A DNA stretch of 64,000 nt, from positions 4,331 to 68,330 of the forward strand of contig JAHFDA010000008.1 in assembly GCA_023249225.1 (NCBI GenBank), in the 5' to 3' direction. A program made the translations under genes and the position numbers. How positions within the stretch are numbered: the stretch's first letter is position 1; every line of letters starts with the position of its first letter. The notes under the pieces were generated by a model. It saw nothing but the letters and a program-made list of their open reading frames with translations, ran no database searches and was not told the DNA's origin. This stretch comes from a bacterium. Lineage in GTDB: Bacteria > Margulisbacteria > Marinamargulisbacteria > JAHFDA01. Shown piece after piece: positions 7,361 through 57,212 of this stretch.

Positions 7361-8569
7361 ATGCTTAGCCCCCAGAACCCATTCAGGCCAGGCGCGGGAC
7401 ACCCCCCGCCTTATCTTGCCGGACGAGACACGGAACAAAAAGACTTTGCCACCCTGCTTGAGCAGAAACCCATTCTGCAAAATCTTGTAATTACCGGATT
7501 GCGCGGAATTGGAAAAACCGTCCTGATGGAAAGTCTCAAGCCGCTTGCCGCTCAAAAGCAGTGGGCCTGGGTTGGAACCGATTTGTCCGAGAGCGCGGCG
7601 GTTTCTGAAGAGGCTTTTGCAGAAAGGCTGCTTACAGATCTTTCCGTCTTCAGTGCGTCAATCCGCATTCCCTCCAAAAAGGTTCAGTCTATTGGATTTA
7701 CGGGATCAACATCATCGGGGGAGATCCACCTCAACTACCTAACTTTGCGTGCCATCTTTGACCATACGCCAGGGCTGATATCTGACAAGCTGCGCAGTGT
7801 GTTGGAATTGGTTGGGACACGCGCTCATGCTGCCGGGGCGGCTGGAATAATATTTGCGTATGACGAAGCCCAGACGATGTTCGACAGTCCGGATGAGAAA
7901 CAATATCCCTTGGCCTTATTGCTGGATGTTTTCCAATCGATCCAGCGAAAGGGCATACCGGTCATGCTTTTGCTGACTGGGTTGCCGGCGCTCTTTCCAA
8001 AGCTCGTTCAGGCCCGTACTTTTGCAGAAAGGATGTTTGGTGTCATTGAGCTGCGTCCTTTATCGCTGGAGGAGTCACGTATGGCGATTCGGGAACCATT
8101 CAAGCTGAAAGCTGTACCCAAAGAGTTTTGCTTCAGCAAGGACATTGTCGAACTTATCGCCAAAACATCAGCAGGGTACCCCTACTTCATCCAATTTATA
8201 AGCAAGGCAGTTTTTGATGTTTGCGGAACCCGCCCTGCCCGAGTGAAATGGGTCGTTCCAATCAACGAAATTGTTAAAAAGCTGGATCAGGAATTTTTTG
8301 CCGGACGATGGGCAAGAGTCACTGATCGACAACGCGATTTAATTAAAATTATTGCCCGACTACCGACTGCTAATGATGAATTTACAGTCCAGGAAATTTC
8401 GGAAAAGTCGCTCGCATTAAAAACGGGGGTCCAATTCTTTAAGCCCAGCCAGATTGTGCAAATGCTGGCGGTACTTACAGAAAGGGGCCTGATATACAAG
8501 GATCGTCATGGAAAATACGTCTTTGCAGTCCCTTTGTTTGCCGATTTTGTCAGGCGTTTGCGTGAATGA
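7361..8569 (+). CDS. AAA/STAND-type ATP-binding protein (Arch_ATPase-like) with C-terminal winged-helix-like region
   Basis: 402-aa ORF. FAGRDTE-type N-terminus, Walker A GLRGIGKTVL, Walker B IIFAYDEAQ. The C-terminus (FTVQEISEKS...LTERGLIYKDRHGKYVF) looks wHTH-like. The 100-nt upstream region is very AT-rich. Confidence 0.75.
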   Translation: MLSPQNPFRPGAGHPPPYLAGRDTEQKDFATLLEQKPILQNLVITGLRGIGKTVLMESLKPLAAQKQWAWVGTDLSESAAVSEEAFAERLLTDLSVFSASIRIPSKKVQSIGFTGSTSSGEIHLNYLTLRAIFDHTPGLISDKLRSVLELVGTRAHAAGAAGIIFAYDEAQTMFDSPDEKQYPLALLLDVFQSIQRKGIPVMLLLTGLPALFPKLVQARTFAERMFGVIELRPLSLEESRMAIREPFKLKAVPKEFCFSKDIVELIAKTSAGYPYFIQFISKAVFDVCGTRPARVKWVVPINEIVKKLDQEFFAGRWARVTDRQRDLIKIIARLPTANDEFTVQEISEKSLALKTGVQFFKPSQIVQMLAVLTERGLIYKDRHGKYVFAVPLFADFVRRLRE

Positions 8570-9839: not shown

Positions 9840-10061
9840 ATGACACGGCAACTTACAGCCATTATTGAACGCGAAGGAGACGGCTATGTTTCCCTGTGTC
9901 CCGAGGTGGATATTGCCAGCCAGGGGGATACCATTGAGGAAGCGCGCGACAACCTCCGGGAAGCGATTGAACTTTTTTTTGAGACTGCATCACACGAGGA
10001 AATCAAGCAACGCCTTCATGAAGAAGTTTATATTACCCGCCTAGAGATCGTTGGTGGGTAA
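9840..10061 (+). CDS. hicB: Type II antitoxin, HicB family
   Basis: 73-aa ORF. LTAIIEREGDGYVSLCPEVDIASQGDTIEEARDNLREAIELFFE matches the HicB N-terminal fold pattern. Overlaps hicA by 11 nt. Confidence 0.85.
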   Translation: MTRQLTAIIEREGDGYVSLCPEVDIASQGDTIEEARDNLREAIELFFETASHEEIKQRLHEEVYITRLEIVGG

Positions 10062-10275
10062 ATTGCACGTGCTTTCGGGAAAGGAAGTTTGCGATATCCT
10101 TTCCCGGCATGGTTTTGCGACAGTACGTCAGCGGGGCAGCCACATCGTCATGCAAAAAAAACTTCCCGACACGACCATAACCGTTCCGGTACCGAACCAT
10201 GCGGAACTGCGTGTTGGTACGCTGCTGGCAATTATTCGGCAATCCGGTCTATCGCGGGATGAATTTGAATCCTAA
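10051..10275 (+). CDS. hicA: Type II toxin, HicA family mRNA interferase
   Basis: 74-aa ORF (TTG/GTG start). LSGKEVCDILSRHGFATVRQRGSHIVMQK is the YcfA/HicA signature. Confidence 0.85.
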   Translation: MVGKLHVLSGKEVCDILSRHGFATVRQRGSHIVMQKKLPDTTITVPVPNHAELRVGTLLAIIRQSGLSRDEFES

Positions 10276-13012: not shown

Positions 13013-13078
13013 ATATCAAATCCATATTTTTAAAACTTTGCCGATAAATCTTCACAGTCCACCAGGAGGTTACGCGTT

Positions 13079-14485
13079 ATGTTTTACAAAGTCATTCCAT
13101 TTAACATGATCATCGAAGGCACGGGCCGCATTGGTTTGCAGACCATTTGGCGTCTCGCGGAGCTCGAAAAGGCGCGTCTTGCCGAGGGTCGTGGTGGACA
13201 GAAGCCAGAGACGATTCTGGCGATCGACGTGATTTCCTTCGAAGATTTTGTGGCCGGCCTGACCGGGCGGCTCAAGGTCGAAAACGTTATTAAGGACGGC
13301 AAAGTGGCGCGTCATTCCGAAATTACCACCGAACCCTGCGAGTTTCAGCCGCATTTTTTTGATCCAGAGCGCCTGGGTATTGCGCCGCAGCACAATAACA
13401 CCATTAAAGTTTACGAAAGACCTTTTGTGGAACACGAGGATGACGGCGGCAGAGTCTTATTCACCATCAAGTACATCCAGGCCAAACGCCCCGATGGCAG
13501 CTTTATGAACGACGACGAAAAAATGGCCCTCGCCAAAGAGTACGACGCCAAAGTATGGGCCTCGTGTACGGGCATGAAGCCGCGCGTGGAAAAAGACGGT
13601 ATTTTGGCCTTTGCCGAAAGACTCAAGCAGCAGTCGCCCGGCACGGTGGTGCTGGTATCGGCGCCCACCAAGGGCAAGGACGTCAGTGAAGCAGCCAAGG
13701 CGCTTAAAAAAAAGATGGACATCACCGTCACACGCAACTTTTCGCGCACGGGAACTTTGTTTCGTTATGTGATTGACCTCAACTTTCCTGCCCCTGATGG
13801 GACTACAGATTACCAAGCGGCTTTTATTGCGAACTTGCGGAGACTGGCCGCGCATCCGCACTTTAAAAATTTTATCGGCCTTGATGAGGGTATCGAGCGC
13901 GCCGACCAGGTGGAAGGCAAGGAAACGCTCATCCACATTGACACGTCCAAAATTAAATTGATTCGTGTAGACAAGGATCATTACAAGCTCAAGCTGAACT
14001 TTTGGGAGGATAATGAGTACGGTTATTCCTGTGTGTACGCACGCAACGTTTTGGCGCTGGCGGCGGCCCTGCAGGATCGCACCCTCAACGCGTCCATACC
14101 AGCCACCACGCTGCTCACCGTCATTAACAGCTTGCACGGCGACGAATGGTTCGAGCAAAACATTGACGCCATTCTGGCCAACGGAAATGTGTCGGCCAGT
14201 TCCTGCACGACCAATGGCAATATTACGGGTCTCATCGCCAGTCTGATGCCGTTCAACATGTTGTTATTGCCTGAAAGCATCCAGAAGTTCAGTGATTTCA
14301 GCGTGGACGATATTCAGGCGATGTTCGCAAATGTGCTTGCCCGTATGGTGCGTTATGTCGACATTCACATGGAACATGGTCTGACGCTGACCGAAGATCC
14401 GAGAGTGGTACCTTTTGTGCGCGAAGTATCTTCTGGTTCGCAGACAGAAGTGCCGCTGGTGCTGGCGGATTTGCCGCGCGAGTAA
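13079..14485 (+). CDS. Divergent glyceraldehyde-3-phosphate dehydrogenase-like protein with non-canonical block order
   Basis: 468-aa ORF. GTGRIG (residues 14-19), VWASCTG (compare VVESTG), VVLVSAPTKG (compare VIISAPSKD), TGTLFRYVIDL...LKLNFWEDNEYGYS (residues 224-317; compare TGMAFRVP...VSWYDNEWGYS), then NVSASSCTTNGNITGL (residues 370-385; compare IVSNASCTTNCLAP). Confidence 0.7.
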   Translation: MFYKVIPFNMIIEGTGRIGLQTIWRLAELEKARLAEGRGGQKPETILAIDVISFEDFVAGLTGRLKVENVIKDGKVARHSEITTEPCEFQPHFFDPERLGIAPQHNNTIKVYERPFVEHEDDGGRVLFTIKYIQAKRPDGSFMNDDEKMALAKEYDAKVWASCTGMKPRVEKDGILAFAERLKQQSPGTVVLVSAPTKGKDVSEAAKALKKKMDITVTRNFSRTGTLFRYVIDLNFPAPDGTTDYQAAFIANLRRLAAHPHFKNFIGLDEGIERADQVEGKETLIHIDTSKIKLIRVDKDHYKLKLNFWEDNEYGYSCVYARNVLALAAALQDRTLNASIPATTLLTVINSLHGDEWFEQNIDAILANGNVSASSCTTNGNITGLIASLMPFNMLLLPESIQKFSDFSVDDIQAMFANVLARMVRYVDIHMEHGLTLTEDPRVVPFVREVSSGSQTEVPLVLADLPRE

Positions 14486-14530: not shown

Positions 14531-15673
14531 CTAAGATAAGAACCTCCCCTGCTCCAAAAACTTGCAGCAACGGGTGTAGTCCCAAAGTTGGCAGCGTGCC
14601 TTGGGATATTGTTTTTGAAACGCCGCCAGGCCGCTGTGTTTATCCTTAAATCCGGATTTAATTTCGATGGCGAATAAATCATTGGGCGTGCGCAGCACAA
14701 AATCAACTTCGGCGTTATTGTCACGCCAATAGAACAACTCCGTATCGGGCAACATGGCCAGGTGGGCGCCCATGATCGATTCGAACACAAAACCATACCA
14801 GCCGGGCTCCTTGATCAGGCGGGTTTGGGGTACGTAAGCATGAATCAGGGCCGGATTCAGCACTATAATCTTGGGGCTGGAATCCTTTATCCGTATTTCG
14901 GAGCCTGAATATTTTTGCAGGGCCCGTATCAGGTAACTTTTTTGCAACAAATCAAGATAGCCCTTGATGGTGGTGGCGTTGCCTCGATCCTGTAGCTGTC
15001 CCAACATTTTTTGCAAACTGATGATATGCGCCGGGTGCCGCACTGCCAGTTCAAACGTTTGCCGAAAAAGCGCCGGCTTATGCACCGGGTTCAGCTGATA
15101 AATATCCTTGCTGATCACCGTCTCCACAATGCTGTTTAAAATATAGTGTTTCCACCGGACAGCATCGCCCTTAAAAGGAATCGCGCCCGGATAAGCTCCC
15201 CACTTCATATAGGTATTTAGATCCCATCCAAAGGCCTGATGGCATTCCAGAAAAGACCAGTGCGGCACTTCGGTCAGCTCAAAACGTCCGGTTAAACTCT
15301 CGCTTAATCCCTTTTGTAAAAACAAGCTGGATGAACCCATCAGTGCCACCTTGATCCGGCCCCGGCCACGTTCCTGGTCAAACAACTGCTTGATGACTTC
15401 GCTCCAGCCGGTCACCTTTTGAATTTCATCAAAAATCAGCAGTGTGTTGGGACCTTGGGCCAGGGCTTCCTGCCAATGCACCCTGATCCAATCTGCTCCC
15501 GGCGGACTGGGATCGTCGGCGCTGACCATGAATTTGGGCCCCTTCCAGCGGTTAAAAATCCATTGGGCGCCCGTGGTTTTACCCACCTGGCGCGGGCCCA
15601 GAATCATTTGCAACAACGGGGCTTTTTCCTGTAAGCGTTTAAGCAGCGTTTTTTGAAATTCCCGTTCAATCAT
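14531..15673 (-). CDS. ATP-binding protein, AAA_14 + DUF4143 architecture
   Basis: 380-aa ORF. Walker A GPRQVGKTT, Walker B LLIFDEIQK. C-terminal restriction-endonuclease-like EVDFVL...AIEIKSG motif typical of DUF4143 ATPases. Paralog of 57213-58355. Confidence 0.85.
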   Translation of the reverse strand: MIEREFQKTLLKRLQEKAPLLQMILGPRQVGKTTGAQWIFNRWKGPKFMVSADDPSPPGADWIRVHWQEALAQGPNTLLIFDEIQKVTGWSEVIKQLFDQERGRGRIKVALMGSSSLFLQKGLSESLTGRFELTEVPHWSFLECHQAFGWDLNTYMKWGAYPGAIPFKGDAVRWKHYILNSIVETVISKDIYQLNPVHKPALFRQTFELAVRHPAHIISLQKMLGQLQDRGNATTIKGYLDLLQKSYLIRALQKYSGSEIRIKDSSPKIIVLNPALIHAYVPQTRLIKEPGWYGFVFESIMGAHLAMLPDTELFYWRDNNAEVDFVLRTPNDLFAIEIKSGFKDKHSGLAAFQKQYPKARCQLWDYTRCCKFLEQGRFLS

Positions 15674-15759: not shown

Positions 15760-17805
15760 CTAAGGCAAGCGCACTCCCCGCCGTTTCAAAAACGGACGCA
15801 ATAAGTTTTTGGCGTCTATTAGCTTTTGACAGATACGTTGACGCGTCACGTTTTTCTCGCTGACGCCCAGTTCCGCCGCGTGGTCGCCGATTTCCTGCAG
15901 GGACATTTTTTCGCAACCGTACCCGTGGGACAGGGCAATCAGGCGCGCCTCTACGGGATACTTTTGGCGGAACTGATCGAGCGCGTCCGCCACGGAGTGA
16001 TCCCATGAGCGTTTGGCCAGGATTTCGTCGTGCAGCTCGGCTTCGTCGGCCACATAATCGCCAAGGTCCGTATCGCCGTCTTCGGAAACGGGCTGGTCGA
16101 GCGAGGTCTTGTTGTCAAAATACAAGAACTCAATCACTCCGGGTTTAAGCACCTCGTGCAGCAGGCCCGGGGTTTCATCCAGTTCGGTGGCCAGGGCCTG
16201 CATTTGATCGTTGGAGTAATTCCGCAATTCTTCGAGCGTTAATGCGTTTACAAAACAGAAACGGTTAATCTTGCTGATGGCGACCGCAACATATCTGGGC
16301 ATGCTGCTAAGGTTGTCCCAGTAAAGTGACATGCGCTGAAAGGCCCAGTGGGAGGCATAGGTTGTAAATTTGTTTCCCGATTCCACGTCATAGGTTTTTG
16401 CGCCCCGCGTAAAGCCCTCGATGCATAAATCGACCAACGTGGTGACCAGCTCGGAGTCCGGCTCGAAGACGCCTTTACTATGGAGAAACGCATAAGTCAT
16501 TTTTTGCGCCAGCCGCAGGTGGCTTAGTACCAGACGGTCGCACAAAACCTTATCCATGCGGTCGTCGGCAATGTACTGCTGCCACAGCGCTTTTTCAGTT
16601 TCCCAGGGCAGGTGCTTGAAATCCTCCGGGGACACGGGCCGCGGCTGGGGTTTGCGTGCAAGCACGGGGTGCGGAGGTGATAGGTACTGCTCGCCTTCTT
16701 TGAGTACAAAGGTCAGCGTTTGGGTCTGGCGCGCAAGTACATTTTCCAAAGCATCCACTTCGATGCGCCACTGTCGGATACCGGCTTCCACGTGGCCATA
16801 ACAGCGCATCCAAAGTTCTTTGCCGCGCCACGAATCGGGCAAACCCGACAGCAGAAAGAAGATTCGCGTCCTGCGACCATTCACAACGGCCTGAATGCGC
16901 GTGACTTCAAACCCTTTTTTAACGATGCCCGACACGGTAGATTCTTCCAATGTTGGCAGGCGTTTGACGGTGACCATGTCAAATTTACCCGGACGAACGC
17001 GTTGCAACCACGCGCTCAACTGCATGCCAAACATATGCGGTTCGGCCTCGACCAGCCGTTGGAGTGGTTCAATGTAGGGATTCCATCGCAGGGCGTAGGG
17101 TAAAAAAACGCTGTCCTGGGTGATGAGGCGTTGGTCGTAAATTGCGGGCGCAATCCCGTCTTGCGGTTGAAGCTCCTCTAGTCGCACCGCATCGTAAACG
17201 TGAGCGCCAACTTTAATTTTAAAAGTTTGCGCCCGCACTTGAGTCACTTCCGGCGGCATGGGGCCCATGTCGACACATTGGCCGGCCTTTACGGCGGTGT
17301 ACAAGGACACCAGGTGGTTACTTGGATACACATCGAGCACATGCGCGGGTGGTGGCGCCAGTCGTGTGCCAGAAAAATATTCCAAAAGCCATTGCTTCCA
17401 AGACGCGGTCAGCGAGGGGCCGGCCAGCTGCTCGGCGCGTTCGAACAGTTTATTCCCCAGACGCAGCACAAAAATCATTTCGGGAGACTGGGGCCGCTTT
17501 AAGGGACGCACACATATTTGCCAGGCAGTTTGGTTCTCAAGTTTCGCGTTGAAGAAGCGTGCCTCCAAAGGCCTGTTTAGCCATTCCGGCGGAAATCCGC
17601 GCAGTTCCAAACCGATGCTTTTTCCGCGCCATTCTAGCAAGAGCACACGAACGTCATTGCGGATGCTAATGTCAAAACGGCGTGTCGGTGGCGGGGTGGT
17701 CGGAGCGTCGGCGAGCAGCCAGGCCCGCGCCTTTTTACCCCATAGGATATTCCACGACCGTCCGCCGTACTCGGGGGAGGTTGCAATTTGTTTTAGGCGG
17801 AACAC
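15760..17805 (-). CDS. Sigma-70 family protein with approximately 400-aa uncharacterised N-terminal extension
   Basis: 681-aa ORF (GTG start). The C-terminal 280 aa aligns by eye to sigma regions 2-4: NKFTTYASHWAFQRM (2.3/2.4), MPRYVAVAISKINR (3.0), SLDQPVSEDGDTDLGDYVADE (3.2), EARLIALSHGYG...MSLQEIG...VSEKNVTRQRICQKLIDAKNLLR (4). The N-terminus contains two copies of a G-x-P-x-x-W ... W-x-I-x-V ... FVL module. Confidence 0.8.
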   Translation of the reverse strand: MFRLKQIATSPEYGGRSWNILWGKKARAWLLADAPTTPPPTRRFDISIRNDVRVLLLEWRGKSIGLELRGFPPEWLNRPLEARFFNAKLENQTAWQICVRPLKRPQSPEMIFVLRLGNKLFERAEQLAGPSLTASWKQWLLEYFSGTRLAPPPAHVLDVYPSNHLVSLYTAVKAGQCVDMGPMPPEVTQVRAQTFKIKVGAHVYDAVRLEELQPQDGIAPAIYDQRLITQDSVFLPYALRWNPYIEPLQRLVEAEPHMFGMQLSAWLQRVRPGKFDMVTVKRLPTLEESTVSGIVKKGFEVTRIQAVVNGRRTRIFFLLSGLPDSWRGKELWMRCYGHVEAGIRQWRIEVDALENVLARQTQTLTFVLKEGEQYLSPPHPVLARKPQPRPVSPEDFKHLPWETEKALWQQYIADDRMDKVLCDRLVLSHLRLAQKMTYAFLHSKGVFEPDSELVTTLVDLCIEGFTRGAKTYDVESGNKFTTYASHWAFQRMSLYWDNLSSMPRYVAVAISKINRFCFVNALTLEELRNYSNDQMQALATELDETPGLLHEVLKPGVIEFLYFDNKTSLDQPVSEDGDTDLGDYVADEAELHDEILAKRSWDHSVADALDQFRQKYPVEARLIALSHGYGCEKMSLQEIGDHAAELGVSEKNVTRQRICQKLIDAKNLLRPFLKRRGVRLP

Positions 17806-17879
17806 AGTATAAATCGTTTAAGGCGGGGTTTGATTGCATGCAATTTTCTTTAATTTAGAACAGCTTGGGGCCAAGCACC

Positions 17880-18245
17880 CTATCCCAAATCCATTAACAC
17901 ACGAATGTTATCGCGCACCTGGCGCATGATGGATTCTGAAACCTGGCCCAATTGCTTTTTCAGCCGTTGGCAGTCAATGGCGCGTAACTGATCGATCAGG
18001 ATATCCGAGGGGACTTTTAAGCCAGAAACTTTTGAAGCGGCAACATGCACCCGTAGTAACGTGACGTTGAGTTTTACCAGGCTGCTAAGCGGGCAGACGA
18101 TGACGGTGGGATGTATGGGATTGAGCAGGTCGCTTTGAACCACCAACACCGGACGCTGTTTGCCGGGTTCAGCGCCCCGTTTGGGTTCTAAATCGGCCAC
18201 ATAAATGTGCCCGGATCTTGGCAGCAGGGTTTTAACCGATTTCAT
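17880..18245 (-). CDS. mazF: Type II toxin, MazF/PemK family endoribonuclease
   Basis: SGHIYVADLEPKRGAEPGKQRPVLVVQSDLLN ... QLRAIDCQRL pattern. I chose the ATG at 18245 (14-nt overlap with the upstream antitoxin). The longest ORF extends to 18296. Confidence 0.85.
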   Translation of the reverse strand: MKSVKTLLPRSGHIYVADLEPKRGAEPGKQRPVLVVQSDLLNPIHPTVIVCPLSSLVKLNVTLLRVHVAASKVSGLKVPSDILIDQLRAIDCQRLKKQLGQVSESIMRQVRDNIRVLMDLG

Positions 18246-18578: not shown

Positions 18579-18608
18579 TGAAATTTATCACGATTCTTAT
18601 CGATAAAT
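18579..18608 (+). promoter_or_regulatory. Approximately 30-nt promoter-like element TGAAATTTAT-N8-TTATCGATAWWT (copy 1)
   Basis: TGAAATTTATCACGATTCTTATCGATAAAT lies 31 nt before the ATG at 18639. It aligns with 21791-21820. It contains the perfect palindrome TTATCGATAA. It can be read as -35 TGAAAT / 17-nt spacer / -10 GATAAA. Confidence 0.5.
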
Positions 18609-18638: not shown

Positions 18639-19298
18639 ATGATCAACATGCTTTTCCGTAGAGTTTCATTGGCGCAGGTGCCCGTGGCTGCCGTTGAAGC
18701 CGCTCCCAGGATTGAAGTACCCAGGACGGCACTGGAATTGATAAACATAATTGGCGAAGTGCGGCAGATTGAATTACCCGGTGGACAAAAAGTCAGCATC
18801 ACTGTACTCAAGGCCCGTGAACTAATGGCGTATCTCGGAGTAGACAGCCTTACGTCTGTTTACCAGAAGGCTGGCTTAAGTATCCAGTTTGATGCGGACA
18901 ACATGATCAACAGATTCGGCATGTTGATTAATCAGGACAAGCCGATGACTGAAGCAATTCTTGACGCCGTTGTGGCCAAAGCCAAAGAACAAAATTTGAC
19001 GAAGGCCGATGCGCTGGGCATGTTAAACCTGCGCGCTTCCCGAATAGCGTATGAAAAACTGCACGCGGAAAACTTTCACAGTAAATCTGGTGTTTATTGG
19101 TTCTGGACTGCAGAAAAGTTTTTGGGGCACTTTGAGGAGAGTCGATATCCTAAAGCAGCAGTTGTAAGGTCAAATAATATTGATAGAAGTCGTGATAGCC
19201 GCTTTTGTCTGCGTAATGTTAGTAACGACAATTGGTATGGCTTCGTTCTTGCTAATCGTTACAACTATGAGGGTGTCGTCTTTGGCCTGCCCGATTAG
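18639..19298 (+). CDS. Hypothetical protein (no recognisable domain)
   Basis: 219-aa ORF with good SD (AAGGGG 8 nt upstream). Followed by two small hairpins and a T-rich tract at about 19325-19372. Confidence 0.6.
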   Translation: MINMLFRRVSLAQVPVAAVEAAPRIEVPRTALELINIIGEVRQIELPGGQKVSITVLKARELMAYLGVDSLTSVYQKAGLSIQFDADNMINRFGMLINQDKPMTEAILDAVVAKAKEQNLTKADALGMLNLRASRIAYEKLHAENFHSKSGVYWFWTAEKFLGHFEESRYPKAAVVRSNNIDRSRDSRFCLRNVSNDNWYGFVLANRYNYEGVVFGLPD

Positions 19299-19679
19299 AC
19301 TCAATTCAGTCCTTGGTTCTTGTCCGCCCGTGCGGATGCGCTTAAGGCGCAGAAAATTTGTTTTAATTTAAAGTGGGTGGCGCGGTTTCCGCGCTCACAA
19401 CGCTATGTGTTTGGCCCCGTGATTATATTTTTTGTGTCGGAGGCGTAAAAAACTTAAATCTGCGTCTGCGGGCAAAATACCGGGCCAAACTTTTAGTTCG
19501 GACGGCATCAAGAACGAGAAAACGACTTTTTCAACAGCCTAAAGCTGTCGCAACCAGACCCGCCTTGACGGCCTTAAGATGACGCGGATAGTTGGCTTTG
19601 ACTTGACGCATTCATCGGTATTAGGGATTAGGGATTGCCTGCAATTTCCCCCCAGATCACCCGATAAAGCCTTACTCCC

Positions 19680-21017
19680 ATGCTACGCAAGAAAATCAGC
19701 GTCCCGCCAGAAAACCAGGTGGTCGAAGAATTCTCCGGCGACACGCTGACGTTAAAACCGGGCATGGCGGTCAGTCTGGCCGAACTGATGGATTCTGTCG
19801 ACGCCAGCATGGATTTTTACTTGCGCCGACTAAAACAAGAAGGTAAAGCCGAAGCGTCGGTCTGGCTGGAAATATTTTCCAAAAAACCGCTCTCGGAACA
19901 GCTCCGCAATCTGTACAGCGGGCAACTGGATTTTTCTTCGGATCAAGTTCTGTCGGCTGCGGAACTTTACCACCTGTTGCACCAGGAGTTGGCGGGAGGT
20001 ACTTACAACATGTTTGCGCGTTGCCTGGGAGCAGCCCAAATTCAGCAAACAGCGCGCCTGAATAAAATTTCGCTGCTTGCCGCTGCCGGACGGTTGTGGT
20101 TTGAATGTGACGATATTACAAGTGCCGATCACATGTACATATTCGAAAATTATTTTGGCGACTATCTTATTAACGCCTACTTTGACCGCCATCCCAAGCC
20201 CCATAACTTTAAAATCGATTTACATTTGCTTATGACCCATCTGATTCCTGCGATTGCCATTTGCGACTTTAGCGAGGACGACAAGCTGCGTTTTATTCAC
20301 AGCCTATTGTTTTTACTCCACTCCGACGCCGATAACGCCACATTAGAAACATTTCTTAACACGGTCCTAAAAGCCAAAGAAACAATTCCCGAAAACGCGG
20401 TGTTGGTTGATTTGGACGCAGCGCTGGCTGAAATACGGGTTTTGTTCCAAACCCATTTTCCGTCCTGCTGGCTGGCGGGCGACTACGAACTCAAGGCCCG
20501 CATCGTCCGTTACAAGGGCCGGGACAAGGAGCATCTCGAAATCGTTCCGCCGGACAATATGTATTTTGACGAACCCCGAAACATCGAAGCGCCGGACGAC
20601 GAGTTTCCGCCCGACGGGAATATTGTGTCCCGCAACGAGTATTCCAAACTCATCTGCAAGGACGGATCGGTATTTCTTCCCAACGGGCAAAAAGTATTTT
20701 GGGGCGACTTGCGGCACGAGGATATCTGTCATCTCAAAGGTGTCTACTACGTGCTTAGTCAGGAAGATTCGTTTCACCAGGTGCCGGAGGATTTTGTGAT
20801 GGTGGAAGCCCTCTTTCCGGCGGATGACCCGCATCGTCCGTCTGAAGAAGAAAGAGCACACTTTCAGCGCGGGTTCGAAGAAGCAATGGGTATTCCGGAG
20901 GGACCGCTTCTACAGCCTAAACGCGACAAGGTGGCGCTGCATCCTGATTACGTGCGCCTCAAGGCCCGGGGGCGGATTGAAAATGGCGTGTTTGTGGAGA
21001 ATTCAATCAGGATTTAA
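19680..21017 (+). CDS. Hypothetical protein (no recognisable domain)
   Basis: 445-aa ORF, the only long ORF in this interval. No obvious SD. Acidic, helix-rich N-terminal half and a beta-like C-terminal half by composition. Confidence 0.6.
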   Translation: MLRKKISVPPENQVVEEFSGDTLTLKPGMAVSLAELMDSVDASMDFYLRRLKQEGKAEASVWLEIFSKKPLSEQLRNLYSGQLDFSSDQVLSAAELYHLLHQELAGGTYNMFARCLGAAQIQQTARLNKISLLAAAGRLWFECDDITSADHMYIFENYFGDYLINAYFDRHPKPHNFKIDLHLLMTHLIPAIAICDFSEDDKLRFIHSLLFLLHSDADNATLETFLNTVLKAKETIPENAVLVDLDAALAEIRVLFQTHFPSCWLAGDYELKARIVRYKGRDKEHLEIVPPDNMYFDEPRNIEAPDDEFPPDGNIVSRNEYSKLICKDGSVFLPNGQKVFWGDLRHEDICHLKGVYYVLSQEDSFHQVPEDFVMVEALFPADDPHRPSEEERAHFQRGFEEAMGIPEGPLLQPKRDKVALHPDYVRLKARGRIENGVFVENSIRI

Positions 21018-21060: not shown

Positions 21061-21732
21061 TTAGCTTCGGATTTGCCGATACGCAAGATTGAATAGGTAC
21101 GCCAAAAATGCCAACGGAAAAACCGCCAGGTCAGCCACGTTATAAATACGTTCGTGGTAACGAATAAAATCCAGTGCGCCATCAATCAGCACTATGGATG
21201 GTAGCGTATTGCCCCCGATCATCACCGCTAGACCGGCCAAGCTGTAGTTGACCACATGTTGGAATTCAATGCAGGCACGCAAAGCCTTTGACTTAAAAGC
21301 TTCATCATAATTTGGATTTTGAGAAAAACTGGGCAGTGCCACCCGGTCAAGGCCATGCAGCATCAGGCGTAGTGCCAGCAAACTAACGCTGGCCCATAAA
21401 AAGATTTCTAGTTCCGCGTCCATGGTGAGCGTCAGCTGACGGCTGACCACCACGCCATATTGTTTTAAATAATCTTCTACAAACTGCCATCTAAAGAGAT
21501 TGATCGGTGTGCGGGCATAATGAAATTCGGGGTAAAAAGAAAACGGCCCCAGGCCGAAATAGCCTGTTTTGCTAAAGATCACGGGCACCCAGGCTTTGCT
21601 AAGCCAATCCAAGGCCAACATGCCAACGAAGTAACTTACATACTTGCGATCCGTCACGCTGATGGCGCGCAGTTCGGCCAGCGAAAATTGCAAAGGGTGC
21701 TCATGTTCGGCCAATTTACGGCAAAGCAACAT
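21061..21732 (-). CDS. Hypothetical membrane protein (about 4 TM)
   Basis: 223-aa ORF with four hydrophobic stretches. Divergently transcribed from the 778-aa sigma-like gene (93-nt spacer). Confidence 0.6.
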   Translation of the reverse strand: MLLCRKLAEHEHPLQFSLAELRAISVTDRKYVSYFVGMLALDWLSKAWVPVIFSKTGYFGLGPFSFYPEFHYARTPINLFRWQFVEDYLKQYGVVVSRQLTLTMDAELEIFLWASVSLLALRLMLHGLDRVALPSFSQNPNYDEAFKSKALRACIEFQHVVNYSLAGLAVMIGGNTLPSIVLIDGALDFIRYHERIYNVADLAVFPLAFLAYLFNLAYRQIRS

Positions 21733-21790
21733 ACTTTATATCGTTAACCGGGTGTAGGGGTTTCAATCGGGACTGGGTTTAGCAGATTTA

Positions 21791-21820
21791 TGAAATTTAT
21801 ATCTGATTTTATCGATATTT
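21791..21820 (+). promoter_or_regulatory. Approximately 30-nt promoter-like element (copy 2), immediately upstream of the 778-aa sigma-like gene
   Basis: TGAAATTTATATCTGATTTTATCGATATTT. The -10-like GATATT ends 7 nt before the ATG at 21826, and there is no SD, so the mRNA may be leaderless or nearly so. Confidence 0.5.
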
Positions 21821-21825
21821 AGTAC

Positions 21826-24162
21826 ATGGCTATTTCAGTCAGATTGCAACTGCGGCAACTGGCCGCACCACTTCGAAATGTGGATCCCACTGTTCCGCGT
21901 GTGGAGTCTAATCGTTCCGAAGTCAACGTTCCAGATGTAGGATCCGCAGGAGTGGCGCGTTGGCTGGTATTGGCGCCTGTAGACGACTATGGTGGTGTGA
22001 CGCTGCTGGTCGGCAAAAAACGTTTTTATCTGGGACAGCCCATTGGCAAGCGCTTTCAAGACCGCATACTTCCGCTGCTCGTGGTACAGAAGGGTTCCAA
22101 AGTGGAGGTCACCCAGCCACGTGCGCGAATTTCCAACGTGGAATTTTTGTGTCAGTGGGAGCTTGATCTTGAAAGCGATCAGGTGACGCTTCAACGCGGC
22201 CCACGGCAGTTTGTGGTCAGCGCGCCGGATCAGCGCCACATTAACGTTGATGGTGTACAGTATTTTTTGTTCACCGGCAATTCCCAGGGGCCGAGATATT
22301 TTGAACGGCAGGCGGATGGCACGCGGCGCGTGCTGGGGTTCAAACCGGAACTGCGTCCCATTGAGCCCAATTTTATTTTCCGTTCCGAAGATGGGCGCGC
22401 GGTGGCCTGGATGGTCAGCCATTCTGTGCATTACCGCGACATGGCGGAACTGAAAACGTTTTGCCGCAGCACGTATGTCTTTCGGTTTTTACGCCAAAAG
22501 GGCCGGCTGCCCCAGCTTTACGTTGATAACGCGCTGCATTACGAAGATGGCACTTCCGAGTCCATACGCCTCACCGAGAAGATGACCGCGGCAACGCTCA
22601 AAGCCAGTGGACTTCTTTCTGACGACAGCAATGTTGAAAGCGAAATAAATCGGTTGGCGGACAGTCGCGCCACCGTGCCGCTCGACGTCAGTTTTTCGGG
22701 CGGAATGCCTTATGCCGTGCATCTTTTGCAGAGCCAGGGTGGCCGGGCGCTTTGGTATTTTCGGCGTGTGCTGGATACGCGCACTTTGCAGGCCAGCGAA
22801 TTTTCGCTTAAATATTTCCGACAGATTGGCCATAGCAACCGGTTTTTGGTGGCCGAAAATCTGCCGACCCATATTGTTCAAAAAGGCAAATTTTTTTACG
22901 AAACGGCAGACATAATTAGCAAAACGTTTTATCTGCGCTCATCCGCCGAACCCATTGCTTCCCGCCGGGTTCATCTGGTTGTAGACAAAGAAAGCAACAC
23001 GGTGTTGGCGGCAGTGGCCGATCCAGCCGGCCCATTTAACCCGCAACTTGTATATCGCGTTATTAACCAACAGAGCTTTAAAAGTGAAAAGTTTTTACGT
23101 CAACTCGAAAAGCTGGGATGTTTTGGCATGGCGCAGCAGCTCCAAAAGGAACTGACTGCCGGGCAAAAACCAATTCATCTGCCCGGTTTGGAGTGGATCG
23201 ACGATCCAAGTTTGCGGGAACACGTGCGCGAGTGTGTGCGCTCGGCCCCATCCGAGGCTGAAAAATATGCGTTGTGGACCCAATTCGTGCGCGGTGGGCG
23301 TAAAGACATGGGATTGCTGCATGAGTTAGTGGCATACGAACTCGGTTACATTCTGATGATCACCCGGCGGGAAGTAGGTGCTTATCCCCGCCAGCTCTTT
23401 ACCGAATTCTTCAAATCGGCCATCGAAGGCGCTGTCATTGCCGGTTTGCCTGGTCCCAAGCGCGAAGGTTATGCCCCTGGTCGCGGCACGCCCTTTAGAA
23501 CTTACATGGAAATGTGGTGCGTGGCATACATCCAGCAGAATGACGCCTACAAACGTGGCGTGGTACCCATGGATCAGCGGCGCGTGTGGCGAATCAATCA
23601 GGTGATCGAGGCCATGCAGTATTTGCGCGTTAGCAAAGATCAAGCGCTGGAGGACCTCCAGAAGCTGGACGAAATTGCCGGACTGCTCAAAATGAGGCCG
23701 GGCGAAGTAAAACTTATTCTTCAGCACGATTTGGATACCTACCAGCAAAACCGTGGTCCACGCTCGTTCGACGCGCCGGTCGGCAACGAACACGATGGCG
23801 ACAACGAAACTTCCCTGCTTGATCTGACCGGCTCAGACGAAGGTTCGCAGATTATCGAAAAGCAAGCCGTCCACAGAACCTTGCGACAACTCTTGGACAC
23901 GTTGGCATCCGAACTGCCCCGCGAAGCTGCTGTGGTGGCCCTGGCCTTTGGCCAGCATCCGCAGGTACCAAACGAAGTGGCAGGCAATGAAATCGGCAAG
24001 CAGTATTACCACTTGATTCCCAGGACTTCCAAATACACAGGCCCAGCGCAACCTTTAAGTTCCACGGCCGTCCGAAAACTGCTACAAGACGGTCTGGCGC
24101 GCTTGCGTGCACTGATGGATGTCCAAGGGTTAACCGCCCTTGATTTTGATCTGGCGGGTTGA
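21826..24162 (+). CDS. Highly divergent sigma-70 family protein with approximately 490-aa uncharacterised N-terminal region
   Basis: 778-aa ORF. The C-terminal 280 aa parallels sigma regions 2-4: LFTEFFKSAIEGAVIAG (2.2-like), TPFRTYMEMWCVAYIQ (2.3/2.4), VPMDQRRVWRINQVIEA (3.0), SFDAPVGNEHDGDNETSLLDLTG (3.2), REAAVVALAFG ... LSSTAVRKLLQDGLARLRA (4). Confidence 0.7.
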   Translation: MAISVRLQLRQLAAPLRNVDPTVPRVESNRSEVNVPDVGSAGVARWLVLAPVDDYGGVTLLVGKKRFYLGQPIGKRFQDRILPLLVVQKGSKVEVTQPRARISNVEFLCQWELDLESDQVTLQRGPRQFVVSAPDQRHINVDGVQYFLFTGNSQGPRYFERQADGTRRVLGFKPELRPIEPNFIFRSEDGRAVAWMVSHSVHYRDMAELKTFCRSTYVFRFLRQKGRLPQLYVDNALHYEDGTSESIRLTEKMTAATLKASGLLSDDSNVESEINRLADSRATVPLDVSFSGGMPYAVHLLQSQGGRALWYFRRVLDTRTLQASEFSLKYFRQIGHSNRFLVAENLPTHIVQKGKFFYETADIISKTFYLRSSAEPIASRRVHLVVDKESNTVLAAVADPAGPFNPQLVYRVINQQSFKSEKFLRQLEKLGCFGMAQQLQKELTAGQKPIHLPGLEWIDDPSLREHVRECVRSAPSEAEKYALWTQFVRGGRKDMGLLHELVAYELGYILMITRREVGAYPRQLFTEFFKSAIEGAVIAGLPGPKREGYAPGRGTPFRTYMEMWCVAYIQQNDAYKRGVVPMDQRRVWRINQVIEAMQYLRVSKDQALEDLQKLDEIAGLLKMRPGEVKLILQHDLDTYQQNRGPRSFDAPVGNEHDGDNETSLLDLTGSDEGSQIIEKQAVHRTLRQLLDTLASELPREAAVVALAFGQHPQVPNEVAGNEIGKQYYHLIPRTSKYTGPAQPLSSTAVRKLLQDGLARLRALMDVQGLTALDFDLAG

Positions 24163-24174
24163 TTGAACCAAAGC

Positions 24175-24912
24175 CTAGTTTTCCGTGAGTATCTTGTGTA
24201 AAGCTTCCAGATGTCCTGCCGTCACCGCCGCCAGCATGCTGGTTTTGTTGGGATTCTGGGCAAACATTTCAACAATGGTTTTGGTTTTATAACGCTCCCA
24301 AGGTTCATCAAGGCCTGACAGCCAGTTGCCAAACTGGTTTACTCCCAATGTGGCTATTTGATAAACAATGCCAGAAAGTCCAAACAGTGCCACTACGCCA
24401 GCAGCCCATAAAAGCTCTCTGCGACTTAAAGCCATCTCCCACAGTGCCCGTCGATATATCAGCGCTGCGCTTGTGGCTGCCAAAAGTGCTGGTGGCCAGT
24501 ACAGCAACGCACGCGTGCGTACGCCCGGAACCCAACCCGCTTCCAGATGAAAGGCGTGATGTTTTTCTTCAAGGTGCCGCATGAACTGTTCACTTGTGGA
24601 CGCCAGGCCCAAATAACGAAAGCCGGTATCGATCAGCATCTGAAGAATTTGCCCCTCCCATGCTCCACGCAAGTCACGCCGTTCAAAGCCGTAAAGGTCA
24701 AAGTCGTTTGTATCACACACACGTTCGGCGCTTTGAAGGTCGGCCTCACCTGCGCCATTCGCAATGCCTAAAAGCACCAGCTGGCGGGGGATACCCTCAA
24801 CGGTCAACGGGACATAAAGCGCCTGAACTTTACCGGCCTGCGCATTGATCTGTTCAACAAGCAGCACACGAAAAGGTTCAGTGCTTACGGCAATCTGGCG
24901 ATGATGCATCAC
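24175..24912 (-). CDS. Hypothetical protein with soluble N-terminal half and 2-3 C-terminal TM segments
   Basis: 245-aa ORF, convergent with the sigma-like gene (12-nt gap). Hydrophobic stretches ALLYWPPALLAATSAALIY and LLWAAGVVALFGLSGIVYQIATLGV. Confidence 0.55.
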   Translation of the reverse strand: MMHHRQIAVSTEPFRVLLVEQINAQAGKVQALYVPLTVEGIPRQLVLLGIANGAGEADLQSAERVCDTNDFDLYGFERRDLRGAWEGQILQMLIDTGFRYLGLASTSEQFMRHLEEKHHAFHLEAGWVPGVRTRALLYWPPALLAATSAALIYRRALWEMALSRRELLWAAGVVALFGLSGIVYQIATLGVNQFGNWLSGLDEPWERYKTKTIVEMFAQNPNKTSMLAAVTAGHLEALHKILTEN

Positions 24913-24944
24913 GTACTATTTATCGTGGCAGGGCAAAGAAAGTT

Positions 24945-25142
24945 TCATTTTGCTTTCTTTCGTTCAAGTTCCAATGCTTTCTCAACCGGCATCCACACAG
25001 CCTTACCCTTATGCATGACTGCAATGGGAATACCGAGTCGGCGGTTTTCTTCGAGTACTTTACGTACGGCATCTTGCAGGGATTTTTCGGCCCGACGTCC
25101 TTCGGCAGAAGGGCGCGAGTCGATTTTTTTTGGTTTAGCCAT
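24945..25142 (-). CDS. Small basic protein, putative partner/antitoxin of the zeta-like ATPase
   Basis: 65-aa ORF whose ATG overlaps the stop of the upstream ATPase gene by 8 nt (ATGGCTAA), suggesting translational coupling. Confidence 0.55.
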   Translation of the reverse strand: MAKPKKIDSRPSAEGRRAEKSLQDAVRKVLEENRRLGIPIAVMHKGKAVWMPVEKALELERKKAK

Positions 25143-25725: not shown

Positions 25726-25857
25726 GAGCGGGCCGTACTTTATTGTATCGCGAGACTTGGGTCAGGGTTATTTATATCATTTTTTGACTGTAGATTTTTT
25801 CCTGAATTCTTTTTTACCAATCTCCGATAATAAACAAATTCTTACGGAGGTTGTCCT

Positions 25858-26409
25858 ATGACTTCAGTGATAGGTTTAGCGGTAGCCTTGGCGGCATGTA
25901 CCCCCAGGCCAGTTCAAATTCAGGATGTCTGTGAGCAGACCCCGAGCTTTGGTTGCTATCAAAAGGTGCTTTGGAATTCCAATGTTTTTCCTGAACAATC
26001 ATTCAAGGCACTGGAGTGGATGTGGAATCAAGCCGTGCTTGAAAATGCGCGTATGATTTCGGGCGAGAAAGATGTCAAAACGCCCGCCACCGAAATGCTT
26101 TATGAAACTGCCGAAGACAATGCCATTCCCGCTGTCCGGAATCAGGCACGTGAATATCTCAAAGCTTTATACCCGCACACCGCACGCACGATATACCAGT
26201 TACTGCGGGTGATCTATCAGGTATCGCCAGAACATCCGACGCCAGCGCAACGGATTGAAGCCTTGCAATGGTTGCTGCAGAACAATAGCAACGAACCGGA
26301 GATTGTGGATTTGAAAGCCAATTACACAAAATATTTTTCGGATGCCAACGATCCGGTACATCAATTTCTCGATCAACATGTGGGTGTATCAGTTCCTCTG
26401 CCAGATTGA
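25858..26409 (+). CDS. Hypothetical lipoprotein
   Basis: 183-aa ORF. Signal peptide with lipobox LAAC (GLAVALAAC). SD GGAGG 7 nt upstream. Confidence 0.6.
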   Translation: MTSVIGLAVALAACTPRPVQIQDVCEQTPSFGCYQKVLWNSNVFPEQSFKALEWMWNQAVLENARMISGEKDVKTPATEMLYETAEDNAIPAVRNQAREYLKALYPHTARTIYQLLRVIYQVSPEHPTPAQRIEALQWLLQNNSNEPEIVDLKANYTKYFSDANDPVHQFLDQHVGVSVPLPD

Positions 26410-28917: not shown

Positions 28918-30792
28918 ATGCCCTCTGCCCAAACCTACCAAGTTATCGTCATCGGTGCCGGACATGCCGGTATCGAGGCGTCTCTGGCGTCGGCGCGGAT
29001 GGGCTGCCCTACCCTGTTGCTGACAGCCAGTATCAATACCATCGGAAAAATGTCCTGTAACCCGGCTATCGGCGGACCCGCCAAGTCACATCTTGTTTTT
29101 GAGATGGATGCTCTGGGGGGTTACATGGGCTGGGCAGCAGACCAGACCGCCTTGCAACTTAAAATGCTGAACACCTCAAAGGGCCCGGCCGTTTGGTCGC
29201 TGCGGGCCCAAAGCGACATGTACGCCTACCAGCGTTTGGCACAACAGACCGTATGTGGGCAGGCCAATCTGGATGTGCGGGAAAGCATGGTGCTTCGTTT
29301 CCTATATGAAAACGAAGCAGGCAGCTCCAAACGGGTCTATGGTGTTTGCACCCAGGACGGAACCGAATACCGGGCACAGGCCGTGGTTCTGACGACCGGA
29401 ACCTTTATGCGTGGCTTGCTGCATACCGGACTGGTGCATACGCCCGGCGGCCGGGTAGGCGAACAAGCGTCGAATGATATTTCAAGCGCGCTACGCGATC
29501 TGGGAGTCGAACTTGGGCGCCTAAAAACCGGCACGCCTCCGCGCTTGCATCGCGATTCGATCAATTTCTCTGCCATGAAACTTGAGCCCGGAGACGTGCA
29601 GCCTTATCAGTTCAGCACACGTACCGAAAAATTAGACTGTCCTAACATACCGTGCCACCTGACCTACACCAGCGATAAAACGCATCAGATCATTCGTGAT
29701 CACCTGCACGAAAGCCCAATGTACACTGGCAAGATCGAAGGCACGGGGCCGCGTTACTGCCCTTCCATCGAAGATAAAGTGGTCAAATTTGCCGATAAAG
29801 ACCGCCACCAGATTTTTATCGAACCCACTGGGAGGGATCACGTCGAGATGTACCCTTCTGGTTTTTCGACCAGCCTGCCGGCTGAAGCGCAACTTAAAGC
29901 CATGCGCACGTTGCCAGGGCTTGAACAGGTAGAATTTGTGCGCCCGGGTTACGCCGTGGAATATGATTTTGTGTTTCCGCATCAACTTAAGAACACCTTT
30001 GAACTGCAGCGCGTTGAGGGTTTGTATTGCGCCGGCCAAATTTGCGGTACGTCCGGCTACGAAGAAGCTGCCGCCCAAGGCCTGTATGCAGGCATCAACG
30101 CCGCGCTTAAAGTTCAAAGTAAACCAGCCATGGTGCTGACGCGCGACAGTGCATACATCGGCTGTATGATCGACGACCTGATCACCAAAGAGATTACCGA
30201 ACCTTACCGTATGTTTACGGGACGTTCTGAATTTCGTTTGTTGCTTAGACAAGACAATGCCGACATACGTCTGACTTCTTATGGCAGGCGTGTGGGGCTG
30301 GTGGCAGACAGCCAGTGGAATAAATTTGAGCAAAAAAAGATGCACATGCAAGCGTATGTGCAAAAATTAAAAGCGTTGCGCCTCAATCCAGACTCCCCTA
30401 CCCTAGAACGTCTGCATGTTTTGGGTATCTCGATCAAAAAAACACATGCGCTTGATGAAATTCTGAAACGGCCTGAAATCACGCTGGATCGTCTGATTGC
30501 ACTAGGGTTTATTGACGATGGCCTTGACCGGCTTACCCGTCTTAATGTGGAAACAGACATCAAGTACGCAGGCTTTGTTGCGCGGCAACAAGAGCAAGTC
30601 CGTGATTTTCAACAGCTCGAGCGCATACCGCTTCCGGCAAATTTTTCCTATCTGAACTTGACTGGGCTGCGTAAGGAAGCCATGCAAAAACTAGAAAAAT
30701 TACGGCCTGCCAATTTAGGACAGGCTTCGCGGATTGCAGGCGTCAACCCAGCCGATCTTACTGTGCTGATGGTTCAGTTAAAACGCCGGTAA
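28918..30792 (+). CDS. mnmG: tRNA uridine-5-carboxymethylaminomethyl modification enzyme MnmG (GidA)
   Basis: 624-aa ORF. YQVIVIGAGHAGIEA FAD motif, GGPAKSHLV, GPRYCPSIEDK, and a conserved C-terminal QASRIAGVNPAD. Confidence 0.95.
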   Translation: MPSAQTYQVIVIGAGHAGIEASLASARMGCPTLLLTASINTIGKMSCNPAIGGPAKSHLVFEMDALGGYMGWAADQTALQLKMLNTSKGPAVWSLRAQSDMYAYQRLAQQTVCGQANLDVRESMVLRFLYENEAGSSKRVYGVCTQDGTEYRAQAVVLTTGTFMRGLLHTGLVHTPGGRVGEQASNDISSALRDLGVELGRLKTGTPPRLHRDSINFSAMKLEPGDVQPYQFSTRTEKLDCPNIPCHLTYTSDKTHQIIRDHLHESPMYTGKIEGTGPRYCPSIEDKVVKFADKDRHQIFIEPTGRDHVEMYPSGFSTSLPAEAQLKAMRTLPGLEQVEFVRPGYAVEYDFVFPHQLKNTFELQRVEGLYCAGQICGTSGYEEAAAQGLYAGINAALKVQSKPAMVLTRDSAYIGCMIDDLITKEITEPYRMFTGRSEFRLLLRQDNADIRLTSYGRRVGLVADSQWNKFEQKKMHMQAYVQKLKALRLNPDSPTLERLHVLGISIKKTHALDEILKRPEITLDRLIALGFIDDGLDRLTRLNVETDIKYAGFVARQQEQVRDFQQLERIPLPANFSYLNLTGLRKEAMQKLEKLRPANLGQASRIAGVNPADLTVLMVQLKRR

Positions 30793-57108: not shown

Positions 57109-57212
57109 GGAAAATTATCGGAAAAACAGGTAAATTTATGCATCTTAATTAATCGACATACCAGAATCGCGTTAATTATAGAGTATAATATAAATGATAT
57201 ATTTATATTATC

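Follow-up and report, generated by a model that had tools for sequence, protein, structure and literature searches.

Is a large non-sigma domain joined to a sigma-70 core a real protein architecture, and if so, which genes could such a protein control? The question is raised by a gene for a 681-aa protein (sigma1) in a 64,000-nt stretch of bacterial DNA (contig JAHFDA010000008.1 of assembly GCA_023249225.1, positions 4,331 to 68,330; hereafter the window), which a first-pass annotation had described as a sigma factor with a duplicated module in its N-terminal part, encoded downstream of a mazEF toxin-antitoxin pair. We found that the fusion of this N-terminal domain (N-domain) to the sigma core is genuine and not an artefact, and that a statistically supported, position-specific promoter-like motif is common to seven adjacent genes and to the ortholog of sigma1 in a second genome. 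The chances that sigma1 is a functional non-primary sigma factor, with its own promoter, a local gene set sharing that promoter type and a tethered N-domain of regulatory or targeting function, appear to us about evenly balanced.

A sigma-70 core with a large N-terminal extension

The sigma1 gene starts with GTG, preceded by four sense codons and then a stop, and an identical 681-aa product has been called in a public ENA groundwater assembly. Its C-terminal part is recognised by several profile collections: NCBIfam models for RpoS, RpoD, RpoH, and other sigma factors align to residues ~386-679 (E 1e-10 to 1e-7), the PHROG family phrog_351 ('RNA polymerase sigma factor') matches with an E-value of 2.4e-20, and a two-sequence profile of sigma1 and its homolog P0002 (see below) retrieves SigA, RpoD, and RpoS chains from the PDB over regions 2.1-4.2 (E 3e-20). 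Single alignments cover regions 2.1-4.2 of the RpoS, RpoD, and RpoH models and of the PDB chains, so the regions are present in order. The Pfam domains Sigma70_r2 and Sigma70_r3 remain sub-threshold for sigma1 itself (E ~0.03; Sigma70_r2 14.2 vs. a cut-off of 24), and P0002 exceeds the Sigma70_r2 threshold (27.8 vs. 24). The assignment of the C-terminal part to the sigma-70 family with regions 2 to 4, made in the first-pass annotation, is thus supported by the significant NCBIfam, PHROG, and PDB profile matches, as is its view that the protein is too divergent for the housekeeping RpoD: with the RpoD C-terminal model TIGR02393, sigma1 reaches 39.6 bits where 354 are required, and the aligned identity to RpoD-type proteins is 22-26%.

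Scores for the other named groups are similarly low. The FliA model TIGR02479 reaches 17.4 bits (cut-off 189.6, E 0.003) and the extracytoplasmic function (ECF) model TIGR02937 28.4 (cut-off 42.9), which places sigma1 outside the FliA-WhiG and ECF groups, and domain 3 aligns. Like the group 2/3 sigma factors (RpoS, RpoH, and SigB-type), sigma1 has the ordered regions 2.1-4.2 within ~285 aa and no region 1.1, and its best model and structure matches are RpoS, the C-terminal part of RpoD, RpoH, and SigA. It differs from them in scoring at about 10% of the family cut-offs, in its ~385-aa structured N-domain, and in two inserts, one between regions 2.1 and 2.2 and one of 8 aa within the helix-turn-helix of region 4.2, the latter common to sigma1 and P0002. 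Judged by its sequence, sigma1 is a sigma-70-family protein with a group-3-like layout, which is not a primary sigma factor and falls outside every named subfamily.

An exhaustive phmmer search with residues 1-400 of sigma1 against 1.84 billion cluster representatives (about 15 billion proteins) yielded one true homolog, the 844-aa protein P0002 (E 7e-37), which is ~30% identical to sigma1 in the N-domain (E 9e-42, full length) and in the sigma core (E 2e-38). Another candidate from this search, P0003, was a degenerate tandem-repeat translation and was rejected. At 90% identity, sigma1 and P0002 each form a singleton cluster. Word-indexed searches with the full protein, its N-terminal 400 aa or the two-sequence alignment returned sigma1 itself or generic RpoD proteins and nothing else. 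No relatives turned up in GTDB genomes, JGI metagenome contigs, or IMG/VR when these were scanned with sigma1, the alignment or P0002, nor did phages and plasmids yield a tblastn match to the N-domain. As far as these searches reach, sigma1 and P0002 are the two known members of a very small family that had not been described before.

The second member resides in a different setting, between genes for QueG and a ComB-like phosphatase and among the housekeeping genes tsaE, tsaB, rimI, and ssb, and its locus has neither a toxin-antitoxin pair nor a DUF4143 gene. A survey of homologs and their neighbourhoods, which the first-pass annotation had called for, therefore gave a divided answer: the large non-sigma N-terminal region on a complete sigma2-sigma3-sigma4 core recurs in the P0002 genome, and the mazEF/DUF4143 context does not. 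In the sigma1 genome, the junction between N-domain and core lies on a single assembly unitig of uniform depth. Low-depth contigs from the same groundwater sample represent strain variants of sigma1 (window 16857-16969 and 17495-17742, about 93-96% identical), with 12 synonymous and 7 non-synonymous codon changes in the N-domain. We regard the fusion as genuine because an independent genome encodes a protein of this architecture, the junction is contained in one unitig, and the strain variants are mostly synonymous. One of these variants changes the otherwise conserved R83 of sigma1 to C.

The same data bear on the possibility that sigma1 is a fossil derived from a sigma factor, or a protein re-purposed as an RNA-polymerase-binding regulator or as a DNA-binding protein using domain 4 only. 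Its extreme divergence, the sub-threshold Pfam domains, and the small family size would fit such a fate, as would the replacement of key residues in regions 2.3/2.4 and 3.0 and the inserts in 2.1-2.2 and in the 4.2 helix-turn-helix. Yet all sigma regions are kept in order. The motif G-x-K-F-[ST]-T-Y-A-x-x-W of the core-binding region 2.2 is retained in the alignment with RpoD-type proteins, region 3.2 is well conserved, region 4.1 is recognisable, and the T-R-x-R-I motif of region 4.2 can be aligned; regions 2.3/2.4 are divergent. In addition, sigma1 and P0002, from two distant genomes, are conserved in both halves, and synonymous changes prevail among the strain variants; we consider a fossil or re-purposed protein quite unlikely.

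An all-against-all comparison of the window and the P0002 locus revealed a further extended sigma-like gene, sigma2, 4 kb from sigma1. Its product matches sigma1 in BLASTP (E 1e-8), and hhalign aligns it with the sigma1/P0002 profile over 272 columns covering the whole core (96% probability, E 6e-9). The NCBIfam rpoS model (E 1.5e-5) and phrog_351 (E 3.4e-6) also match; Pfam gives no match. Sigma2 is more divergent than sigma1. Its insert in region 4.2 sits at the same place but is longer, and neither the sigma1 N-domain nor anything else found is related to its N-terminal region of ~450 aa. No more copies of the sigma core, or of the beta-module described below, were found in the window or at the P0002 locus.

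A promoter-like motif shared by adjacent genes

Comparison of upstream regions identified the motif TG[C/A]AA[T/C]-N17-GAT[A/T]3, in which a C precedes GAT at all sites found. The strict pattern occurs four times in the 64 kb, compared with 0.28 expected matches, and this number was reached in none of 200 shuffles, with the reservation that the pattern was first spotted by eye in these upstream regions and the statistics are thus partly post hoc. All four matches lie upstream of, and are oriented towards, genes: those for sigma1, a 219-aa open reading frame (ORF), a 445-aa ORF, and sigma2. When only the boxes from the P0002 genome are used (TGCAAT-N17-GATAAA), the window contains one exact match, before the 445-aa ORF, where about 0.008 would be expected for a pattern of this length, and two matches if one mismatch is allowed (0.51 expected).

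A weight matrix applied to both strands of the window gave eight positions of at least 14 bits, against a mean of 1.7 and a maximum of 4 in shuffled sequences. Seven of them precede neighbouring genes in the interval 17.8-25.9 kb, one site per gene and at a distance of 4-31 nt, and three of these seven were outside the training set. At the P0002 locus, the best non-training match (20.3 bits) precedes the adjacent ComB-like gene by 9 nt. An ungapped comparison of the upstream regions of sigma1 and P0002, anchored at the start codons, has 24 of 42 positions identical (p 5e-5). The weight-matrix scan found no motif at the housekeeping genes, mazE, or the DUF4143 gene.

At five of the motif sites, 4-6 nt separate the motif from the start codon and no Shine-Dalgarno sequence follows, and the genes with 26- and 31-nt leaders have one. 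Because of this spacing and the missing Shine-Dalgarno sequences, leaderless or near-leaderless mRNAs are predicted for the sigma genes, and for five of the nine motif genes altogether.

The consensus for sigma-28 promoters is GCCGATAA at -10 and TCTAAAG at -35 (PMC12784957), and the shared motif resembles it in the CGATAA/T core of the -10 box, often extended upstream to (G)CCGATAA, and in the N15 spacing to an A-rich -35 box. A canonical sigma-28 factor of the FliA/WhiG/SigD class encoded elsewhere in the genome could therefore read these promoters, making both sigma-like genes and the ORFs its late or developmental targets. That sigma1 itself is not FliA-like would agree with this explanation: besides the low TIGR02479 score, no FliA chain is present among the 60 PDB matches listed of 61 for the family profile (E <= 0.01). 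However, the -35 box is TG[C/A]AA[T/C] and not TCTAAAG, and the sites lie 4-31 nt from the starts. Furthermore, the motif accompanies the sigma1-family gene in both genomes, whose contexts are otherwise unrelated, as would be expected of an autoregulated sigma factor, and the 64-kb window shows no flagellar or FliA gene. Control by a sigma-28 factor from elsewhere is the main alternative, which we regard as rather unlikely.

Outside the set of shared sites, the heptamer CGATAAA is 2.3-fold enriched in the window (21 occurrences vs. 9.1 +/- 2.8). One exact GCCGATAA (13040-13048) lies 31 nt upstream of the 468-aa ORF starting at 13079 and has no -35 box, and a weaker full site (10.9 bits, TCCGATAAT; 57114-57125) lies 5 nt upstream of an M3 peptidase gene that starts at 57108.

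The duplicated N-terminal domain

No Pfam, NCBIfam, PHROG, PADLOC, or PDB sequence match was obtained for residues 1 to ~385 of sigma1. This includes the Pfam models Sigma70_r1_1, r1_2, and ner, in agreement with the earlier statement that residues 1-400 have no features of sigma region 1. The same annotation had proposed two copies of a module in this part of the protein, and the copies are convincing once P0002 is included. Within sigma1 alone, the repeat is marginal, with 27% identity over 55 aa and a score that was reached by 43 of 2000 shuffles; comparison of the module-1 pair with the module-2 pair of both proteins by hhalign gave a probability of 91% (E 1e-6, 69 columns) and paired residues ~62-127 of sigma1 with residues ~313-379. 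Invariant across the four copies is G-x-P-x-x-W-x4-L-x2-R ... W ... L-x2-G. Each module spans ~70-95 aa in the sigma1 N-domain, and the two copies flank a middle segment of ~150 residues.

A model of the module predicted by AlphaFold2 (AF2) from the four-row alignment is all-beta (predicted local distance difference test score, pLDDT, 83.7; predicted template modelling score 0.74). The modules are basic in both sigma1 and P0002 (isoelectric point (pI) 9-10.7), and neither protein contains a transmembrane segment. The N-domain of sigma1 is thus a new domain of 385 residues, internally duplicated, basic, and beta-rich. It is followed by a proline-rich linker, at the position of which P0002 carries an insertion of ~110 aa. 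Since the linker tolerates an insertion of this size, the N-domain may be a tethered, independently folding unit, as suggested by the alignment of the two proteins.

Region 1.1 of primary sigma factors mimics DNA and is acidic and helical. Like the sigma1 N-domain, it and the non-conserved region lie N-terminal to region 2, and an autoinhibitory role would be a further likeness that we only infer; in contrast to region 1.1, the N-domain is basic and beta-rich. Regulatory extensions are also known from ECF sigma factors, C-terminal in ECF41/42 and N-terminal in ECF121 (BldN) and ECF36 (SigC), and some of the N-terminal ones inhibit DNA contact or are proteolytically removed (PMC7826278, PMC8999054), but N-terminal extensions of ECF sigma factors are generally short (PMC7826278). 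In principle, sigma1 resembles these proteins in that a cis-fused regulatory domain would replace a separate anti-sigma factor. ECF sigma factors lack domain 3, whereas sigma1 has it and carries a duplicated, beta-rich extension of 385 aa. Sigma factors with fused regulatory domains are therefore already known, from the ECF extensions (PMC7826278) and from MzaA (see below), and it is the N-domain of sigma1 itself that is new.

Neighbouring genes and proposed role of the locus

The toxin-antitoxin pair next to sigma1 was only partly confirmed. The MazF toxin is well supported, and it forms a MazEF-type pair with an overlapping small gene (14-nt overlap); the ribbon-helix-helix (RHH) nature of the 78-aa putative antitoxin has no hidden Markov model (HMM) support. 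On the other side of sigma1, the DUF4143 ATPase named in the first-pass annotation is indeed present.

Table 1. Features of the window and of the P0002 locus (positions in the window unless indicated otherwise)
Feature	Position	Strand	Description and basis
sigma1, N-terminally extended sigma-70-family gene	15760..17805	-	681 aa, GTG start; ORF list, ENA gene call, sigma models
Sigma core of sigma1, residues ~396-681	15760..16620	-	Regions 2.1-2.4, 3.0-3.2, 4.1-4.2; NCBIfam RpoH from residue 396, PDB, alignment
Proline-rich linker, residues ~376-395	16621..16680	-	8 Pro in 25 aa; alignment, composition
Beta-module copy 2, residues ~313-379	16669..16869	-	G-L-P-D-S-W ... F-V-L-K-E-G; hhalign, alignment, AF2 module model
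Beta-module copy 1, residues ~62-127	17425..17622	-	G-F-P-P-E-W ... F-V-L-R-L-G; hhalign, alignment; pI 10.7
sigma2	21826..24162	+	778 aa, core at residues ~451-763; BLASTP, hhalign, NCBIfam, PHROG
Motif TGCAAT-N17-GATTTA	17810..17838	-	Ends 4 nt before sigma1 GTG, no Shine-Dalgarno; pattern and weight-matrix scans
Motif	18579..18607	+	31 nt upstream of 219-aa ORF (18639-19298)
Motif, exact P0002 boxes	19640..19668	+	11 nt upstream of 445-aa ORF (19680-21017)
Motif, 16.0 bits, outside training	21737..21765	-	4 nt upstream of 223-aa ORF (21061-21732)
Motif	21791..21819	+	6 nt upstream of sigma2 ATG
Motif, 16.5 bits, outside training	24919..24947	-	6 nt upstream of 245-aa ORF (24175-24912)
Motif, 14.7 bits, outside training	25803..25831	+	26 nt upstream of 183-aa ORF (25858-26409)
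Motif at P0002 locus	L081 5782-5810 and 9061-9089		Upstream of P0002 and its neighbour
AAA_14/DUF4143 ATPase	14531..15673	-	Pfam; PADLOC candidate PDC-S01 (E 2e-131); own sigma-70-like promoter match, no shared motif
Palindrome ATTGCATGCAAT	17833..17844	.	TGCAAT half is the -35-like box; not conserved at P0002
MazF/PemK toxin, probably 121-aa form	17880..18245	-	Pfam PemK_toxin E 2e-27; gene call; no shared motif
Putative antitoxin, 78 aa	18232..18468	-	RHH-like by eye, no HMM support; good Shine-Dalgarno sequence
ORFs of unknown function	13079-14485, 18639-19298, 19680-21017, 21061-21732, 24175-24912, 25858-26409		All but the first with the motif

This arrangement would allow sigma1 to be a one-component sensor-sigma factor, co-transcribed with mazEF and coupled to it in function, perhaps together with the DUF4143 ATPase, for instance as a stress or anti-phage module. 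The genes lie on the same strand, the gaps between them are short (74 and 86 nt), mazF is not followed by a strong terminator, and the AAA_14/DUF4143 protein matches a PADLOC candidate defence family. Sigma1 also has a weak similarity to MzaA of the mzaABCDE anti-phage system (NF041931; PMC9523054), in whose 726-position model a sigma-70 core likewise follows an N-terminal extension of ~440 positions. However, the MzaA match (E 1.7e-7) comprises only profile positions 441-698, i.e. the generic sigma core, and scores 30.5 bits against a cut-off of 800, the N-domains of the two proteins are unrelated, and PADLOC found among seven neighbouring proteins only PDC-S01 and neither MzaB-E nor another system; sigma1 is thus not a member of the MzaA family.

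Nor did the proposed functional link to mazEF find support in the gene context, since the locus of the only homolog, P0002, has no toxin-antitoxin pair and the gap between mazF and sigma1 holds a conserved promoter-like element of its own, which mazE and the DUF4143 gene lack. Such genes also occur elsewhere in the window: a second AAA_14/DUF4143 paralog is encoded at 57213-58355 (+), and a gene for a HicA-like toxin (68 aa) with a 73-aa partner lies at ~9840-10275, about 8 kb from mazEF (ENA gene calls). The additional copy of the DUF4143 gene weakens the case for a specific link of this family with sigma1. With these further HicA and DUF4143 genes and their absence beside P0002, the adjacency of mazEF and DUF4143 to sigma1 is most simply explained as incidental, and we consider a coupled sensor-sigma module very unlikely.

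A generic scan of the 74-nt gap for sigma-70 promoters and terminators gave nothing useful. Both the gap and the palindrome ATTGCATGCAAT reported in the first-pass annotation are present, but the palindrome is no special feature: the window contains 25 perfect 12-nt palindromes where ~16 are expected. As it is statistically unremarkable and not conserved upstream of P0002, we rejected it as an operator.

The surrounding window is chromosomal and encodes MnmG, UvrC, CarA, aspartokinase, phosphoglycerate mutases, and tRNA-Pro. Its MnmG (28918-30792) is at most ~52% identical to that of any of 185,579 GTDB species representatives, with the best matches scattered over Poribacteria, Nitrospira, and Verrucomicrobia. 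Based on this low identity, the organism belongs to a deeply branching, poorly sampled groundwater lineage. No confident Pfam match was found for the run of ORFs around the sigma genes, several of which were also checked in NCBIfam, PHROGs, PADLOC, or PDB; the 468-, 445-, 219-, and 223-aa ORFs have no confident PDB, Pfam, or NCBIfam matches, and there are only sub-threshold matches of the 245-aa ORF to DUF4131 and of the 468-aa ORF to a GAPDH model. A prophage origin of the locus was rejected, as none of the neighbours except sigma1 and sigma2 matches a PHROG. Farther away, the window encodes two tandem SSB-like proteins (35549-36022 and 36025-36441) that are 41-47% identical to the SSB encoded beside P0002. 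About 7 kb from sigma1, an AAA_16/nSTAND6 NTPase gene (7361-8569, +) may represent a STAND-type defence or signalling protein.

In the reading that we propose, sigma1 would consist of a group-3-like core (sigma2-sigma3-sigma4, no region 1.1), a flexible proline-rich linker, and the ~385-residue N-domain. Its gene would be driven by its own promoter, TGCAAT-N17-GATTTA, in the 74-nt gap after mazF, and would be one of about seven adjacent transcription units with a shared promoter type, the other units being sigma2 and four to five functionally uncharacterised ORFs. Alone or in a cascade with sigma2, sigma1 would recognise these promoters, resulting in autoregulation and in control of the local gene set. 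The N-domain could act in cis as a gate that keeps the core from RNA polymerase or DNA until a signal or partner lifts the block; alternatively, it might bind a partner or nucleic acid. Both mazEF and the DUF4143 ATPase would be unrelated insertions next to sigma1.

Several observations weigh against this proposal. Conservation is poor at the DNA-contacting residues of regions 2.4 and 4.2, the helix-turn-helix of region 4.2 carries an insert, and classical sigma function may therefore have been lost. Support from the motif is lessened by the post hoc element in its statistics and by its match to sigma-28/FliA promoters (PMC12784957) in the -10 core (G)CCGATAA and the spacing, if not in the -35 box, because the sigma1 protein is closer to SigA and RpoS than to FliA. 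It would also be unusual for a leaderless mRNA to start with GTG, and no contig of the metatranscriptome from the same groundwater sample covers the sigma1 locus.

Of the structure prediction and fold search recommended earlier, the former produced the all-beta module, and the latter found no significant match of this model in BFVD (best E 0.14) or PDB (best E 1.2; template modelling scores <= 0.38), and hence no recognisable ligand-binding or signalling fold. The AF2 model of full-length sigma1 from the two-row alignment was unusable (pLDDT 43). With the fold unrecognised and the full-length model unusable, we can only infer a regulatory role of the N-domain. Lipocalin and OB-fold proteins, the top PDB matches in Foldseek, were regarded as noise.

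A bolder interpretation is that sigma1 represents a new class of sigma factors with a built-in signal-receiving domain of new fold, made up of the duplicated basic beta-module, and that it acts with sigma2 in a self-contained, autoregulated circuit which controls a few leaderless genes through sigma-28-like promoters; we consider this unlikely. The comparative power and general significance are limited by a family of two members among ~15 billion proteins from a poorly sampled lineage. Still, with two extended sigma genes and five ORFs behind one promoter type, the locus forms a compact, testable system, and although the organism is uncultured, synthetic genes would allow promoter specificity and the role of the N-domain to be tested in vitro. 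Control of sigma factors is usually exerted in trans by anti-sigma factors, and cis-fused control domains are best known in the minimal ECF group. A three-domain sigma factor with a large duplicated N-domain would extend this principle of cis-control and add a domain to the signalling repertoire.

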